A DNA stretch of 64,000 bases, taken from NCBI GenBank assembly GCA_963722305.1, contig CAVRKE010000001.1, positions 501,549 to 565,548 of the forward strand, in the 5' to 3' direction. Both the position numbers and the translations under genes were made by a program. The notes below the pieces were generated by a model, which made no database searches, had not been told where the DNA came from, and worked only from the letters and a program-made list of their open reading frames with translations. The DNA comes from Candidatus Levyibacteriota bacterium. Its GTDB lineage: Bacteria > Patescibacteriota > Microgenomatia > Levybacterales > UBA12049. Of this stretch, positions 24,514-44,586 are shown in pieces (within the stretch, counting starts at the first letter, position 1; each line of letters opens with the position of its first letter).

Positions 24514-24763
24514 TGGCAGGCCAGGAGGGAATCGAACCCCCAACAGAGGTTTTGTCCCAGAAGTATCTCGCAAATTTTTATTGCAGGGTTGCTCAGATTC
24601 GAACTGAGAAAAGCAGTTTTGGAGACTGCTGTGATAACCATTTCACCACAACCCTTTGAAAAATTTGCTTAGAACTTCGGGATCCCGTAGATGTAAGCTT
24701 TTTCTCCGAAAAAGCAACATACTACTGGGAGAGACCTCAGTTATACCATTTAACTACTGGCCT
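24514..24763 (-). tRNA. Interrupted tRNA-Trp(CCA)-like gene: 5' part 24763-24731, 176-nt insert 24730-24555, 3' part 24554-24514 with encoded CCA
   Basis: The 5' part is AGGCCAG TA GTTAAATGGTATAAC T GAGGT CTC. The 3' part is CAAA ACCTC TGTT GGGGGTTCGATTCCCTC CTGGCCT G CCA. All four stems are complementary, and U8, A14, G18G19, T54T55C56 and A58 are present. The joined loop CTCCAAA gives anticodon CCA. Confidence 0.7.
24584..24655 (-). tRNA. tRNA-Trp (anticodon CCA), complete, nested inside the interrupted tRNA
   Basis: AGGGTTG TG GTGAAATGGTTATCAC A GCAGT CTCCAAA ACTGC TTTT CTCAGTTCGAATCTGAG CAACCCT G. The cloverleaf is canonical, with A1-U72 and G73. No CCA is encoded. Confidence 0.9.
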
Positions 24764-24771
24764 ATGACGTT

Positions 24772-24800
24772 ATTATACTGGGAATGGACAAATCTAGCAA
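24772..24800 (-). promoter_or_regulatory. Sigma70-type promoter (TTGCTA-N17-TATAAT) 8 nt upstream of the outer tRNA 5' end
   Basis: On the minus strand, TTGCTA at 24800-24795 and TATAAT at 24777-24772. The outer tRNA position +1 is at 24763. Confidence 0.5.
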
Positions 24801-24818
24801 TTGAGGAAGAAACAGGGG

Positions 24819-24995
24819 TTATTTCAGTTTTTCGTTTTCTTTGTGGTCGGTAACTTTTCTACAATGCCGGCAATATTTTTTGAGCAGCAATTTTGCCTCT
24901 GTATTCAGCTTATTTCTGGTCGTGACGTAATTTCTGTTTTTACAAACAGTGCAAACGAGCCCCAAAACTACCCTATGTTCTCCCTTTTTTGCCAT
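24819..24995 (-). CDS. rpmG: 50S ribosomal protein L33
   Basis: This 58-aa ORF falls below the track cutoff: MAKKGEHRVVLGLVCTVCKNRNYVTTRNKLNTEAKLLLKKYCRHCRKVTDHKENEKLK. It shows the L33 pattern C..C..RNY.T..N......L.LKKYC..C...T.HKE. The plus-strand track ORF 24801..25025 is antisense to it. Confidence 0.85.
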   Translation of the reverse strand: MAKKGEHRVVLGLVCTVCKNRNYVTTRNKLNTEAKLLLKKYCRHCRKVTDHKENEKLK

Positions 24996-25045
24996 AAACG
25001 GTATTTTAGCAGACTTTCTTCGTAATTTGAAGAGCGAGTATTTTG

Positions 25046-25117
25046 AGCCGAGAGCGGGAATCGGACCCGCGACCTAGTCATTACCAATGACTTGCTCTGC
25101 CACTGAGCCATCTCGGC
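25046..25117 (-). tRNA. tRNA-Thr (anticodon GGT)
   Basis: GCCGAGA TG GCTCAGTGGCAGAGC A AGTCA TTGGTAA TGACT AGGTC GCGGG TCCGATT CCCGC TCTCGGC T. The T-loop has C at position 55. Confidence 0.85.
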
Positions 25118-25144
25118 GTGCTATAACAATGAGCCTGTCAAATG

Positions 25145-25228
25145 TGCTGGGTGAGGGACTCGAACCCCCGCAGACCTTACGGTCATCTGGTCTACAGCCA
25201 GAGGCGATTGCCGCTACGCGAACCCAGC
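25145..25228 (-). tRNA. tRNA-Tyr (anticodon GTA), long variable arm
   Basis: GCTGGGT...TCTGG CTGTAGA CCAGA, variable arm TGACCGTAAGGTCT, T arm GGGGG TTCGAGT CCCTC, acceptor ACCCAGC, discriminator A. Confidence 0.85.
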
Positions 25229-25251
25229 GTGTTATTATTTTAGCAGATTTG

Positions 25252-25323
25252 AGCCGAAGGCGAGATTCGGACTCGCGACTTGCTGTTTACAAAACAGCTA
25301 CTCTACCACTGAGTTACTTCGGC
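25252..25323 (-). tRNA. tRNA-Thr (anticodon TGT)
   Basis: GCCGAAG TA ACTCAGTGGTAGAGT A GCTGT TTTGTAA ACAGC AAGTC GCGAG TCCGAAT CTCGC CTTCGGC T. The T-loop has C at position 55. Confidence 0.85.
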
Positions 25324-34069: not shown

Positions 34070-34861
34070 ATGACCGACAATAAAAAGACAAAAATTGAAG
34101 AAACACCTGAAGATACAACTCTGGTCGAAAAAGCTGTTGAAGAAGAAAAAACCGAACAAAAAGTCGAAGAAGTTGTCGACGAGGTGATTGAAGAGAAAAC
34201 CGAGCAAACGGAGAACAGCGAAATCCCGAGCGCAGCCGAGGGAGAAACCCCTGAAGGAAACGAAGTTTCCGAAGGGACCGAAGAGACTAAGGAAGAACCC
34301 GCAGTTGAAGAAACGCCCGCACCCGCTTCCTTGTCCGATGACGCCAAATGGTACATTGTCCACACTTATTCCGGACATGAAAACAAAGTTTCCAAATCCC
34401 TAAGGCAGCGCATTGAATCGATGGGTTTTGAAGACCGCATTTTTGACATTATTGTTCCGACCCGCGAAACCTTTAAAGTTTCCGGCGGTAAAAAAGAAAC
34501 AGTTAAAGAAAAGATTTTCCCCGGCTATGTCTTGGTCAAAATGATTTTGGACGACGAAAGTTGGCTTCTGGTTAGAACCACCCAGGGCGTCACCGCTTTT
34601 ATCGGCGCCGGCAACAAACCGACCCCGATTTCCGACAAAGAAGTGGCGGCCATCCAAAAGTTTATGGCCACCGAAGAACCATTATACAAAGCCTCTTTTG
34701 TGGTTGGCGAAGCGGTCAAGATTACGGACGGGCCGTTTACCGATTTCCTCGGCACCATTGACAATATTGACGAATCCAAGGGAAAACTGAAGGTTTTGGT
34801 AAGCATTTTCGGACGAGAAACTCCTGTTGAGCTAGATTTTCTCCAAGTATCAAAATTATAA
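34070..34861 (+). CDS. nusG: Transcription termination/antitermination factor NusG with a ~85-aa acidic N-terminal extension
   Basis: KWYIVHTYSGHENKV (NGN domain) and a C-terminal KOW (GEAVKITDGPFTDFLGTI). Glu/Thr-rich N-terminus. Confidence 0.9.
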   Translation: MTDNKKTKIEETPEDTTLVEKAVEEEKTEQKVEEVVDEVIEEKTEQTENSEIPSAAEGETPEGNEVSEGTEETKEEPAVEETPAPASLSDDAKWYIVHTYSGHENKVSKSLRQRIESMGFEDRIFDIIVPTRETFKVSGGKKETVKEKIFPGYVLVKMILDDESWLLVRTTQGVTAFIGAGNKPTPISDKEVAAIQKFMATEEPLYKASFVVGEAVKITDGPFTDFLGTIDNIDESKGKLKVLVSIFGRETPVELDFLQVSKL

Positions 34862-34878
34862 TAATGAAAATCTAGCGA

Positions 34879-34902
34879 AATCCTGAGCGTTAGCGAAGGA
34901 TT
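34879..34902 (+). repeat. Hairpin repeat with tandem G.A mismatches (family copy 1)
   Basis: Stem AATCCTGAGC, loop GTTA, stem GCGAAGGATT. It lies just after the nusG stop. Confidence 0.65.
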
Positions 34903-34943
34903 GAATACGGCTTCTTGCAAGTGAGTAAGCTTTAGCTTACGAA

Positions 34944-34965
34944 ATCCTGAGCGAAAGCGAAGGAT
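34944..34965 (+). repeat. Hairpin repeat with tandem G.A mismatches (family copy 2)
   Basis: Stem ATCCTGAGC, loop GAAA, stem GCGAAGGAT. A separate GTAAGC-TTTA-GCTTAC hairpin (34925-34940) lies between copies 1 and 2. Confidence 0.65.
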
Positions 34966-35203
34966 CAGTAGACATTTTAAGATAGAATAAGTATAATAGA
35001 AAAACTTATTACGAGTCTGGGAGACCGTAAGGTCGTTTGAACCAGTAGATAAGAACCTCTTTTTGAGACTTTTCTACTTTCAAATTTTCAGTTTTAATAA
35101 TAATTTTTGCGGGGAGCTTGCAAAATTTTTGAAGGACGACAAGCGAATTACGGGTCCGAAAAAATTTTCGTAAGCGACCCAAGCAAATCTTTAGAAAGTA
35201 AAT

Positions 35204-35314
35204 ATGGCTAAAAAGATTAAGACAATCATTAAAATTAACATTCCGGCCGGAGCAGCCCGCCTGCCATCGCTGGTAGCTCAGGCATGGAACGCTATTATGA
35301 AAGGACGAAATTAA
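35204..35314 (+). other. Upstream ORF / partial 5' duplicate of rplK (36 codons)
   Basis: It encodes MAKKIKTIIKINIPAG, identical to L11 residues 1-16, then diverges through indels. Its TAA at 35312-35314 lies 1 nt before the rplK GTG. Confidence 0.6.
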
Positions 35315-35315
35315 A

Positions 35316-35738
35316 GTGGCGAAGAAAATCAAGACAATAATTAAGATAAATATACCTGCCGGGCAGGCCACGCCTGCGCCACCGGTGGGAACGGCTTTGG
35401 GACCACACGGATTACCGATTATGGAGTTCGTCAAGGCCTTTAACGACAGGACTGCCGAGCAAAAAGGCACCATTGTTCCGGCTGTAATTACCGTTTACGA
35501 AGACCGCACTTTTTCGTTCATTGTCAAAAAATCTCCGATTGCGGAAATGATTAAAAAAGCGATGAACCTGGAGAAAGGTTCCGGCAAACCGGGGACAGAA
35601 TCGGCAGGAACATTGACTAAAACTCAGGCCGAGCAAATTGCCAAAGACAAGCTGGAAGATTTGAATACCGACGACGTGACTCAAGCTGTCAAAATTGTGG
35701 AAGGAGTCGCCCGCTCAATGGGCATCAAAGTACAATAA
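35316..35738 (+). CDS. rplK: 50S ribosomal protein L11
   Basis: MAKKIKTIIKINIPAGQATPAPPVGTALGPHG... is the canonical L11 N-terminal domain. GTG start. Confidence 0.95.
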   Translation: MAKKIKTIIKINIPAGQATPAPPVGTALGPHGLPIMEFVKAFNDRTAEQKGTIVPAVITVYEDRTFSFIVKKSPIAEMIKKAMNLEKGSGKPGTESAGTLTKTQAEQIAKDKLEDLNTDDVTQAVKIVEGVARSMGIKVQ

Positions 35739-35739
35739 T

Positions 35740-36639
35740 ATGGGAAAAATTAGAGTCAGAACTCTTGGCGACGAAAGCCAGGAAGAACAACAAAAAAACG
35801 AGGTCAAGAAAAAACACGAGGCTAAATTGAACGCAGCGAAATCCTCGACGAGAGGAAAGACGACCAAGGCTCCCGGCATGAAAGGCGGCGAAAGAGTGGT
35901 TTCGGTTGGCCCGAGCGAAGAAGAATTAGCCGCTTTGGATAATAAAGGGGTGGCAGAAGAGGGAGGGCTCCCGACAGCGCGCAGTGAAGAGAGCACTGGC
36001 GGGAAGGAAACCTCTGACAGGACCCCGACAAAAAAGCCTAAAAAGGAACAAAAAAACTTCCATTCGCAAAAATACGAGAAACTGTTAGCCGAAGTTGACC
36101 GCAGCAAGACTTATCCTTTAAACGAAGCGCTGGCGCTTTTGCAGAAACTGCAGCGGAAATCTTTTGACGAAACCGTTGAATTGCATGTTAATACCTTAAC
36201 CAGTGGTATTTCCGGCCAAATTACTCTTCCCCACGGCACCGGTAAAACCACCCGCGTCGCCATTGCCGACGACAAAATAATTGCCGAAGTCGAAAAAGGA
36301 GTGATTAATTTTGACGTTTTGGTGGCAGAACCAAGTATGATGCCAAAACTGGCCAAGGTGGCTAAAGTACTAGGACCAAGAGGCTTAATGCCAAACCCCA
36401 AAAACGGCACGATTTCGCCAAAGCCGGAAGAAGTGGCCAAAAAATATGCCGGCGGACAAATGAACTTTAAAACCGAGACCAAAGCACCGATTATTCACTT
36501 AACTGTCGGCAAAATTTCCTTTGGTCCGGAAAAATTAACCGAGAACATTGAAGCATTAATTGCCGCCATCAAAAAAACTAATATCGTAAACGTTACCTTG
36601 AAATCTACAATGAGCCCGGGGCTGAAGATAAAGATCTAA
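35740..36639 (+). CDS. rplA: 50S ribosomal protein L1 with a ~110-aa Lys/Glu-rich N-terminal extension
   Basis: The canonical L1 core begins near KYEKLLAEVDRSKTYPLNEALALL and includes ..LPHGTGK.. and ..LGPRGLMPNPK... The start is set at the ATG at 35740, 1 nt after the rplK stop. Confidence 0.85.
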   Translation: MGKIRVRTLGDESQEEQQKNEVKKKHEAKLNAAKSSTRGKTTKAPGMKGGERVVSVGPSEEELAALDNKGVAEEGGLPTARSEESTGGKETSDRTPTKKPKKEQKNFHSQKYEKLLAEVDRSKTYPLNEALALLQKLQRKSFDETVELHVNTLTSGISGQITLPHGTGKTTRVAIADDKIIAEVEKGVINFDVLVAEPSMMPKLAKVAKVLGPRGLMPNPKNGTISPKPEEVAKKYAGGQMNFKTETKAPIIHLTVGKISFGPEKLTENIEALIAAIKKTNIVNVTLKSTMSPGLKIKI

Positions 36640-44472: not shown

Positions 44473-44508
44473 GTTAAAACCTAAGACAGCGAGTCGAGCG
44501 GAGCGAGA

Positions 44509-44528
44509 TCCTGAGCGCTAGCGAAGGA
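44509..44528 (+). repeat. Hairpin repeat with tandem G.A mismatches (family copy 3)
   Basis: Stem TCCTGAGC, loop GCTA, stem GCGAAGGA, located in the rplJ leader. Confidence 0.6.
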
Positions 44529-44586
44529 CGAACTTCAATCCATAAATCTCGCCGAGGAGAAACTAAGTTCATTTTGAACTTAAAGT

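Follow-up and report, generated by a model that had tools for sequence, protein, structure and literature searches.

The window (the whole stretch of DNA that was analysed, 64,000 nucleotides from a Candidatus Levyibacteriota bacterium) contains the genes secE, nusG (34070-34861), rplK (35316-35738) and rplA (35740-36639) in this order, and the present analysis concerns a short upstream open reading frame (uORF) that directly precedes rplK, the gene for ribosomal protein L11. L11, NusG and their neighbours had their best matches in metagenome-assembled genomes of Levybacteria (Microgenomates, Candidate Phyla Radiation, CPR). The uORF spans 35204-35314, is initiated by ATG and comprises 36 codons (MAKKIKTIIKINIPAGAARLPSLVAQAWNAIMKGRN*). 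A preliminary description, made from the letters of the window, had stated that its codons 1-16 encode residues 1-16 of L11 (read from the GTG at 35316), that the two stretches differ at 12 of 48 nt, i.e., ATG versus GTG plus 11 third positions, all synonymous, and that the uORF stop codon TAA (35312-35314), a single A and the rplK start codon GTG (35316) form the junction TAAaGTG; all of this was reproduced. The identity over 16 residues was thus borne out, except that its true extent is residue 18: the uORF has AA at positions 17-18, which is the ancestral state of L11 and present in all of the closest L11 proteins, whereas L11 of the window carries a derived Q17. The parts of the uORF and the genes that follow it are:

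35204..35257, forward strand: uORF head (ATG and codons 2-18), encoding MAKKIKTIIKINIPAGAA; ancestral-type rplK 5′ end
35255..35283, forward strand: uORF tail core (codons 18-27, A-RLPSLVAQA), with invariant blocks in the family alignment
35255-35270, forward strand: invariant block GCCCGCCTGCCATCGC, nucleotide-identical in four lineages
35276-35283, forward strand: invariant block GCTCAGGC, nucleotide-identical in four lineages
35284..35314, forward strand: variable uORF 3′ end, holding the Shine-Dalgarno (SD) sequence of rplK, GAAAGGA (35299-35305), and the stop codon TAA (35312-35314)
35316..35738, forward strand: rplK (L11, 140 aa, GTG start), an open reading frame with L11 Pfam domains on its homologues
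35316-35369, forward strand: recoded rplK head (first 18 codons), with rare codons, Q17 and the signature GGGCAGGC (35361-35368)
35740..36639, forward strand: rplA (L1), starting 1 nt past the rplK stop

The direct repeat was also found mechanically (55 nt, 75% identical, spacing 112). When the rplK 5′ end was aligned to its own 600 upstream nt, the score was 54, compared with no more than 25 for shuffled sequences, and it far exceeded what the same test gave in 80 related genomes. The preliminary description had considered the remainder of the uORF still alignable to rplK at the DNA level. Taken alone, this similarity is weak (z = 2.5, with shuffles reaching higher scores), but it becomes credible through comparison of the family described below. 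The accompanying claim that the tail is unrelated at the protein level had to be dropped: when the family is aligned, TPA is seen to have become RL through two deletions, of 1 and 2 nt, which together leave the frame intact, and the tail PSLV-AQA..IM is an in-frame, degenerate copy of L11 PPVGTALG..IM. The duplicated unit spans about −10 to codon 37 of rplK, and the former ATG-GAG (Met36-Glu37) of the upstream copy now lies at the site of the real rplK SD. The uORF head is A/U-rich, uses common codons and is not preceded by a proper SD sequence. Tryptic cleavage of the predicted product would yield the peptide LPSLVAQAWNAIMK.

A family of leader reading frames before rplK

Homologues of the uORF were found directly before rplK in three other Levybacteria lineages: L087 (equivalent to L094 and L095), L097 (equivalent to L098) and L099. 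In L087, from ENA and with an L11 that is 85% identical, the uORF is a called gene of 38 codons adjoining rplK (peptide MAKKIKTIIKINIPAGAARLPSLVAQAMEAMEGEQIDG*), and L094 and L095, two JGI metagenome contigs, are identical to it across the uORF. The peptide P0142 (..KLNIPAGAARLPSPLAQALKRGGLL) has its contigs L097 and L098 (of different source), the peptide P0143 (..KINIAGGAARLPSPVAQALDLKEGELNNG) its NCBI contig L099, and all three contigs place the uORF directly before rplK. Further variants came from whole-database searches as peptide only (P0145, P0146, P0148, P0149 and P0150). The family, which stems from independent assemblers and samples, thereby comprises nine distinct peptides, four of them with DNA (the window, L087, L097 and L099), and has the consensus MAKKIKTIIK[IL]NIPAGAARLPS..AQA. 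ATG and reading frame are kept in the four DNA lineages, and start and frame in all nine peptides; ARLP is present in every one of them and ARLPS in eight, P0150 having ARLPK instead. Neither L11 of the window nor its uORF peptide had an exact match elsewhere in an assembly index; the duplicate was present in 0 of 80 GTDB species representatives among the matches listed; a metagenome scan with the back-translated tail pattern gave, beyond L087, only two copies of its type (L094 and L095 above); and a scan of viral contigs for the invariant block gave just two chance matches in GC-rich DNA. A literature search found no description of a leader reading frame for rplK.

The pattern of substitutions differs between the parts of the uORF. 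In head codons 2-16 of the four lineages, third positions were variable at 12 of 15 sites, first and second positions at 3 of 30 (Fisher P = 5e-6). Between orthologous uORFs, the proportion of synonymous differences (pS) in the head was 0.55-0.90 and that of nonsynonymous differences (pN) 0-0.10; for the tail, pN/pS was ∼0-0.45. The heads of the window and L087 are separated by eight silent and no replacement changes, and the two peptides are identical through residue 27. In the tail blocks GCCCGCCTGCCATCGC and GCTCAGGC, on the other hand, none of seven synonymous third positions varied, compared with the 12 of 15 in the head (P = 7e-4), and the tail core shows few replacements among the lineages.

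The 3′ end of the uORF is homologous across lineages but rich in indels (uORF length 34-39 codons; offset to rplK 104, 109, 109 and 112 nt). Nevertheless, in 4/4 lineages the SD sequence of rplK lies inside the uORF, 9-10 nt before the rplK start (GAAAGGA, AAGGAG, GGAGG or AAGGAG), and in 4/4 the uORF stop abuts or overlaps that start: TAAaGTG in the window, TAATG in L097 and ATGGCTAA in L087 and L099. In P0145 and P0149, known as peptide only, an in-frame reading of an SD sequence (EGE/GG) stands two residues before the C-terminal end. The best indication that the uORF is translated, and that the position of its stop matters, is a frame that has stayed open and ends at the rplK start despite many indels. 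In a decaying duplicate or pseudogene fragment, substitutions would be spread over all codon positions, with disrupted frames and no conservation among lineages; the third-position bias and the open reading frame ending at the rplK start in all lineages do not fit this pattern. What the preliminary description had proposed, a translated and selected leader reading frame in a termination-reinitiation geometry, is favoured by the existence of the family, the synonymous changes in the head and the kept frame and junction. Its expectation that the uORF be conserved among relatives held in part: in more distant Levybacteria it is intact and synonymously diverged, but from the closest relatives (L081-L086, L088-L093) it is absent.

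Comparison of the heads revealed two classes. Identities were 0.76-0.82 among uORF heads and 0.78-0.87 among the rplK heads of the same genomes, but 0.67-0.78 between uORF and rplK heads; two separate classes imply a single old duplication without recent gene conversion. The uORF head of the window is 0.80-0.86 identical to the rplK heads of uORF-less relatives, in line with the remaining rplK (0.82-0.85), and employs the common codons found there. The rplK head of every uORF genome, in turn, is of a distinct, recoded type marked by Q17 and rare codons (three ATA, three AAG, one GGG, one GCG, the GTG start and CAG for Q17), and its signature GGGCAGGCnACnCCTGC occurred only in uORF lineages and in L096 among ∼90 lineages fetched (P = 2e-6). 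Import of the uORF from a diverged rplK allele, which had been offered as an alternative in the preliminary description, is hence unsupported and, if anything, inverted: it is the uORF head that resembles the rplK heads of the closest relatives (0.80-0.86), whereas the real rplK head of the window falls in the recoded class that is common only to other uORF-bearing genomes. Within genomes, uORF and rplK heads share 4, 1, 4 and 2 of 15 codons where random synonymous choice according to genome codon usage predicts 6.4, so that extant head pairs are more different than by chance. A possible reason is survivorship, near-identical direct repeats 110 nt apart being deleted. Each of the three replacements seen in uORF heads recurs in the L11 of the same genome (I11L in L097; P14A and A15G in L099) with different codons (TTA/CTT; GCG GGA/GCT GGC). 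Conversely, two of five replacements in L11 heads are unmirrored in the uORF (I8V in L087 and A15G in L097).

The distribution of the uORF is patchy, as each uORF genome has closer relatives without it: L082 (NusG 97.6%), L081 and L088 (L11 96.6%) for the window, L003 for L087, L025 for L097 and L072 for L099. In close relatives of this kind, rplK lies 2 nt after nusG or behind a leader of ∼100 nt. Affinities moreover flip along rplK. Over nt 4-60, the window is nearest to the other uORF genomes (0.79-0.88, versus 0.72-0.77 for near relatives), but over nt 61-420, it is nearest to its near relatives (0.82-0.85, versus 0.71-0.75 for other uORF genomes), and the same flip between head and body was seen in L087, L097 and L099. 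This is compatible with two histories: recombination may have carried the module (tail, SD sequence and recoded head) from one Levybacteria lineage to another, or the module may be old, with numerous losses. No correlation between the presence of the uORF and the spacing of rplK and rplA was found.

A possibly related reading frame was seen in L055 (2927-2983). It has 18 codons (MKKVKTIIRTIRFRRRTL*), starts just past the nusG stop and ends 17 nt before rplK. L11 of L055 begins with MTKKVKTIIKL; the codons for KKVKTII differ from those of the reading frame at third positions only, and an ARLPS block is absent. It may be an independent, or a much more decayed, duplication of the rplK start.

Proposed translational coupling and its alternatives

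The uORF is very probably a genuine, selected and translated reading frame. Regarding its role, we favour, with a probability of roughly 0.55, a leader cistron that originated by tandem duplication and from which ribosomes pass on to rplK through translational coupling. Two copies would have arisen when a segment from about −10 to +111 of rplK (codons 1-37) was duplicated in tandem. The upstream copy would have retained the ancestral, A/U-rich, SD-less initiation region and the first 18 codons, lost the Pro-rich L11 motif via small deletions (TPA to RL), and come to read through a conserved GC-rich block into the former Met36-Glu37 codons, which now would serve as the SD sequence of the downstream copy. 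The latter presumably stayed the functional L11 gene and was synonymously recoded. Ribosomes would load at the ancestral-type start, translate 34-39 codons and thereby melt a predicted structure that occludes the rplK start, terminate within a few nt of that start beside its SD sequence and then re-initiate. Synthesis of L11 would in this way be coupled translationally to the leader cistron, as would, in the window, that of L1, since rplA begins 1 nt after the rplK stop, which puts it downstream in the same translational chain. The native rplK starts of relatives are likewise SD-less (L081, with a spacer of 2 nt; L082, TTTTAATATATG), and it is the uORF start that resembles them, while the real rplK has gained an SD sequence and an unusual head. 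Consistent with an occluded start, the predicted accessibility of the rplK start was 0.16-0.31 in the four uORF mRNAs compared with a mean of 0.49 in 26 uORF-less relatives (Mann-Whitney P = 0.003).

Several points weigh against this reading. The closest relatives of each uORF genome do without the uORF, and in L096 the 60 bases available upstream of a recoded rplK head contain no uORF; both indicate that the element is dispensable. The contrast in accessibility rests on folding predictions, every genome involved is an uncultured metagenomic assembly with all inference drawn from sequence, and the comparison at the DNA level covers four lineages only. Because peptide searches find intact uORFs only, the intactness of the five members known as peptide is partly a matter of ascertainment. 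Simple coupling requires an open frame and a start but no conserved peptide, which leaves the amino acid conservation of the head and its tracking of L11 unexplained; the nucleotide-invariant tail blocks are not explained by coupling either. Finally, the SD sequence of the uORF itself is weak or misplaced, and a duplex test for specific long-range pairing of the tail blocks with the rplK head was not significant.

The invariant blocks would find an explanation if the uORF were a regulatory sensor, in which the ARLPS..AQA peptide and/or the GC-rich RNA blocks pause the ribosome or switch pairings (e.g., GCCUGCC with CAGGC or with GGCAGGC of rplK; GCCAU with the AUGGC start) in response to, e.g., translation capacity, charged tRNA, a compound targeting L11 or the ribosome, or a ribosomal protein. 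We consider this unlikely, though it accounts for the lack of variation at the tail-block synonymous sites (0/7, against 12/15 in the head) and for the retention of ARLP in 9/9 and ARLPS in 8/9 peptides. Complementary segments are present in 4/4 lineages, and RNAalifold draws a long-range helix from them; yet every proposed pair is invariant, so that covariation is lacking, and the duplex energy is no better than against uORF-less heads (ranks 4-24 of 87). A stall at the stop codon is disfavoured by the distance from ARLPS to the stop, which varies from 12 to 18 residues, and a classical transcription attenuator by the absence of a terminator between uORF and rplK. In three of four lineages, the uORF occupies the place of the L1-site-like leader of the nearest relatives (see below), which is consistent with a swap of control devices. 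Given the missing covariation and the unremarkable duplex energies, long-range pairing between tail and head was rejected as evidence and kept as an idea. Likewise rejected was a likeness between the tail and the part of 23S rRNA that binds L11 (AGCAGCC.., UAGCUCA; compared with the E. coli sequence), which occurs in the window only and in 0/3 other lineages and was put down to chance.

Still less probable is that the uORF is a functionless duplication scar, i.e., that a module of ∼110 nt (tail, SD sequence and recoded head) spread by homologous recombination or was lost repeatedly. The uORF head would then be the resident former rplK head, or one refreshed from the rplK of relatives, and its silent divergence would be borrowed from L11 genes. 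The patchy distribution (the window and L082 share 97.6% NusG identity), the affinity of the rplK head to other uORF genomes but of its body to uORF-less relatives, and a uORF head as close to the rplK heads of relatives as is the rest of the gene all fit such an origin; so do L096, whose recoded head without a uORF indicates that loss is possible, and the bias of peptide searches to intact copies. The tail, however, has no functional donor and is nonetheless conserved in peptide and nucleotides. The module also is old (rplK-head pS 0.49-0.79, indel-rich 3′ part), and still the frame is open to the rplK start everywhere; a neutral head of that age would be expected to hold several replacements, whereas the window and L087 differ by eight silent changes and none of that kind.

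Two further possibilities assign the function to the peptide. In the first, a long shot, its identity itself matters, and the head would stay identical to the L11 N-terminus and co-evolve with it, because the partner that reads the first strand of L11 also reads the nascent or released peptide, giving feedback on L11 synthesis by protein mimicry, or because the head is sometimes joined to the rplK body to give a second L11 isoform with AA for QA at positions 17-18. Such joining, by ribosome hopping or by excision of the ∼110-nt module from RNA or DNA, is the least likely variant. If true, a role of peptide identity would explain why the divergence is silent only, why replacements are mirrored and why the downstream head was recoded. 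Bypassing of the T4 gene 60 type, which calls for matching take-off and landing codons and a stop right after take-off, was considered and rejected: the Gly16 codon is GGA, GGA, GGT or GGC in the uORFs versus GGG in all rplK, no stop follows it and the gap amounts to 104-112 nt. In the second, which is very unlikely, the uORF product of 34-39 residues is a trans-acting micropeptide, or a nascent-chain mimic of the L11 N-terminus, that is bound by whatever recognises the first strand of L11 and feeds back on L11 production; PrmA, which methylates L11, a factor for assembly or quality control and the L11 N-terminal domain were considered as partners. The head is indeed conserved at the amino acid level, 3/3 of its replacements are mirrored in the L11 of the same genome with different codons, and the head variation of the peptide-only members concerns positions and residues that are variable in L11 itself. 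Against a mimic, this comparison is possible in four genomes only, 2/5 L11-head replacements are unmirrored (I8V in L087; A15G in L097), neither the Pro-rich motif nor the greater part of the L11 N-terminal domain is present in the uORF peptide, and the element is missing from close relatives. An assembly artefact, in which the rplK starts of two strain variants were joined one behind the other, is hardly conceivable even for an uncultured organism of whose genome no second assembly was found, because the same architecture with the derived RL patch recurs in independent JGI, ENA, Logan and NCBI assemblies, the copies differ by indels and a diverged tail, i.e., beyond single-nucleotide polymorphisms, and nine peptides from independent assemblers and samples exclude it for the architecture.

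Promoter, leader RNA and surrounding repeats

Between nusG and the uORF, the following features were located:

34969..34997, forward strand: sigma-70-type promoter of the rplK-rplA transcript, within a decayed third copy of the nusG 3′ end
35012..35082, forward strand: two-hairpin leader RNA, CUGG-GAG-[variable hairpin]-CGUUUGAA-CCAG, then GUAGAUAAG..CUUUUCUAC
35100..35203, forward strand: window-specific insert of ∼100 nt without counterpart in any fetched locus
35105-35130, forward strand: terminator-like hairpin and U run, inside the insert and upstream of the uORF
35153-35180, forward strand: hairpin inside the insert

The promoter, described beforehand as TAGACA-N17-TATAAT at 34969-34997, matched the consensus at 11/12 positions in a scan; its homologue in L082 lies at 2372-2400, with TATAAT overlapping the stop codon of nusG. 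The nusG 3′ end is present in three copies in the window (34829-34997). Besides the real end (34829-34861), there is a copy at 34912-34935 (TTC TTG CAA GTG AGT AAG CTT TAG, encoding FLQVSKL*) that differs from it synonymously only, including TCA versus AGT for Ser, and a decayed one at 34966-34997 that retains only the promoter. This looks like a second duplicate-and-divide event beside that of rplK. A palindromic repeat of 26 nt, CGAAATCCTGAGCGnnAGCGAAGGAT, occurs between genes at 34876-34901, 34940-34965 and 44504-44529, where none is expected by chance, and two of its copies flank the extra nusG end.

The hairpins of the leader had been noted in the preliminary description. Of the two pairings named there, CTGG-GAGACCGTAAGGTC-..CCAG belongs to a conserved, covarying leader, but GGGTC..GACCC lies in the ∼100-nt stretch that is unique to the window. 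The two-hairpin leader was found in nine of the lineages fetched (the window, L002, L003, L005, L025, L042, L072, L082 and L085). In its alignment, 95% of cells were paired compared with 28-59% in slid controls, compensatory changes were seen in five pairs (of the inner hairpins), and a covariance model recovered L005 and L072, both of which are outside the seed. The published L1 site, a small RNA found ahead of rplK in many bacteria, consists of a stem of 6-12 bp and an internal bulge with a G-A pair and an unpaired A, before rplK or rplA (PMC3616713). The leader has a CUGG/CCAG stem, an internal loop of GAG and UUGAA and a covarying inner hairpin, and lies before rplK. By shape, which was compared with the published description only, 35012-35082 is a candidate L1-binding autoregulatory site, and the leader RNA might merit a separate family for CPR genomes. 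Neither the leader nor the uORF region matched any Rfam family: a permissive search of window 34800-35800 and of L082, L087, L097 and L099, and a scan of the whole window at the gathering threshold, gave only tRNAs and noise. The sole matches at that threshold in the window were a cluster of four tRNA genes (24584-25323, reverse strand).

L087, L097 and L099 are devoid of this leader although their nearest relatives have it, while the window has both leader and uORF, separated by ∼100 nt; in L082, the ATG of rplK directly follows the leader. The intervening insert repeats the SD region of rplK (ATTTTTGAAGGACGA at 35125, compared with ATTATGAAAGGACGA at 35294) and may be what is left of another duplication, or an attenuator; the alignments did not reach significance. 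A third, decayed copy in 35096-35203 was rejected, its alignment not being significant (z = 1.9 and −1.1).

Other repeats and extensions were observed nearby. A GC-rich, hairpin-rich element of 68 nt (window 35948-36015) lies in frame in the N-terminal extension of L1 encoded by rplA and shares 94% identity with a copy between nusG and rplK in L086, whose rplA has it too (L086 2409-2476 and 3019-3187); it looks like a small mobile or duplicating element that can reside in coding sequence. This L1 extension has ∼110 residues (35740-36070) and is partly made of the repeat elements described above, and NusG has an acidic N-terminal extension of ∼95 residues (34070-34360), both relative to the conserved cores. 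In L087, one A/T-rich element of ∼65 nt (..AATAAATGATTCATTGAAACATTGAAAATT.AATGAAAATTGAGAATTAGAAATTGAAAATT..) occurs both before the uORF (165-250) and before rplA (870-935) and may be a repeated promoter or UP-like module.

Comparison with known systems

The closest likeness in layout is to the two-cistron or bicistronic design elements, in which a short leader cistron contains the SD sequence of the main gene and its stop overlaps the main start (TAATG). Examples are the two-cistron vectors of the Schoner type and the bicistronic design of Mutalik et al. (2013). Like these, the uORF has its own initiation region, a second SD sequence in its 3′ end and a stop at the main start, and the expected effect, translation of the leader unfolding the start of the main gene, would be expected here as well. 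Unlike these, the uORF is natural and was born from duplication of the main gene's own 5′ end, its peptide is conserved, it contains nucleotide-invariant blocks and the head of the main gene is synonymously recoded; coupling is here proposed from sequence.

In known bacterial ribosomal-protein operons, control is exerted by RNAs that mimic rRNA and bind a ribosomal protein; a conserved leader cistron before rplK would be a different solution. The E. coli L11 operon combines autoregulation by L1, which binds an RNA mimic of 23S rRNA, with translational coupling from rplK to rplA (PMC3616713, citing Baughman and Nomura 1983). The operon is the same here, control would equally act at the rplK initiation region and be passed on by coupling, and the shape of the window's leader fits. 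A leader reading frame, in contrast, is not part of the L1-L11 system, and three of the four uORF genomes lack the structured leader.

Regulatory leader peptides that act via the nascent chain or alternative pairing, such as ErmCL, SecM, TnaC and MifM, share several traits with the uORF (PMC5499644, PMC4423224). A short conserved reading frame, an internal peptide motif and complementary RNA segments before the gene are common to both, but the spacing between motif and stop is not fixed in the uORF, where an internal stall site is conceivable. No nascent-chain leader peptide is known whose N-terminal half is copied from the regulated protein, as is that of the uORF. A trpL-type attenuator would have a terminator hairpin and U run between leader and gene, with an alternative antiterminator; here the uORF stop touches the rplK start, and the terminator-like site at 35105-35130, the sole one, precedes the uORF.

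Partial tandem duplications leave 5′ pseudogene fragments that normally decay. The uORF shares their origin, a tandem duplication of ∼110 nt that included the start, but unlike them it has, in several lineages, an open frame, silent divergence and a constrained geometry. Coupling by a leader cistron and a retained partial duplication are thus known kinds of element; new here are a leader that copies the N-terminus of the regulated protein, its silent recoding, its frozen blocks and its alternation with an L1-site-like leader. The locus would offer a clean natural case of a partial duplication of a gene start that was retained instead of decaying, with a division of labour in which one copy holds the ancestral initiation region and the other the protein and the synonymous recoding. 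Its architecture is one that synthetic biologists designed independently for bicistronic coupling, and a head that is conserved and tracks L11, combined with a frozen tail, makes it a tractable test case for constraints on leaders at the peptide or codon level in the poorly understood CPR bacteria.

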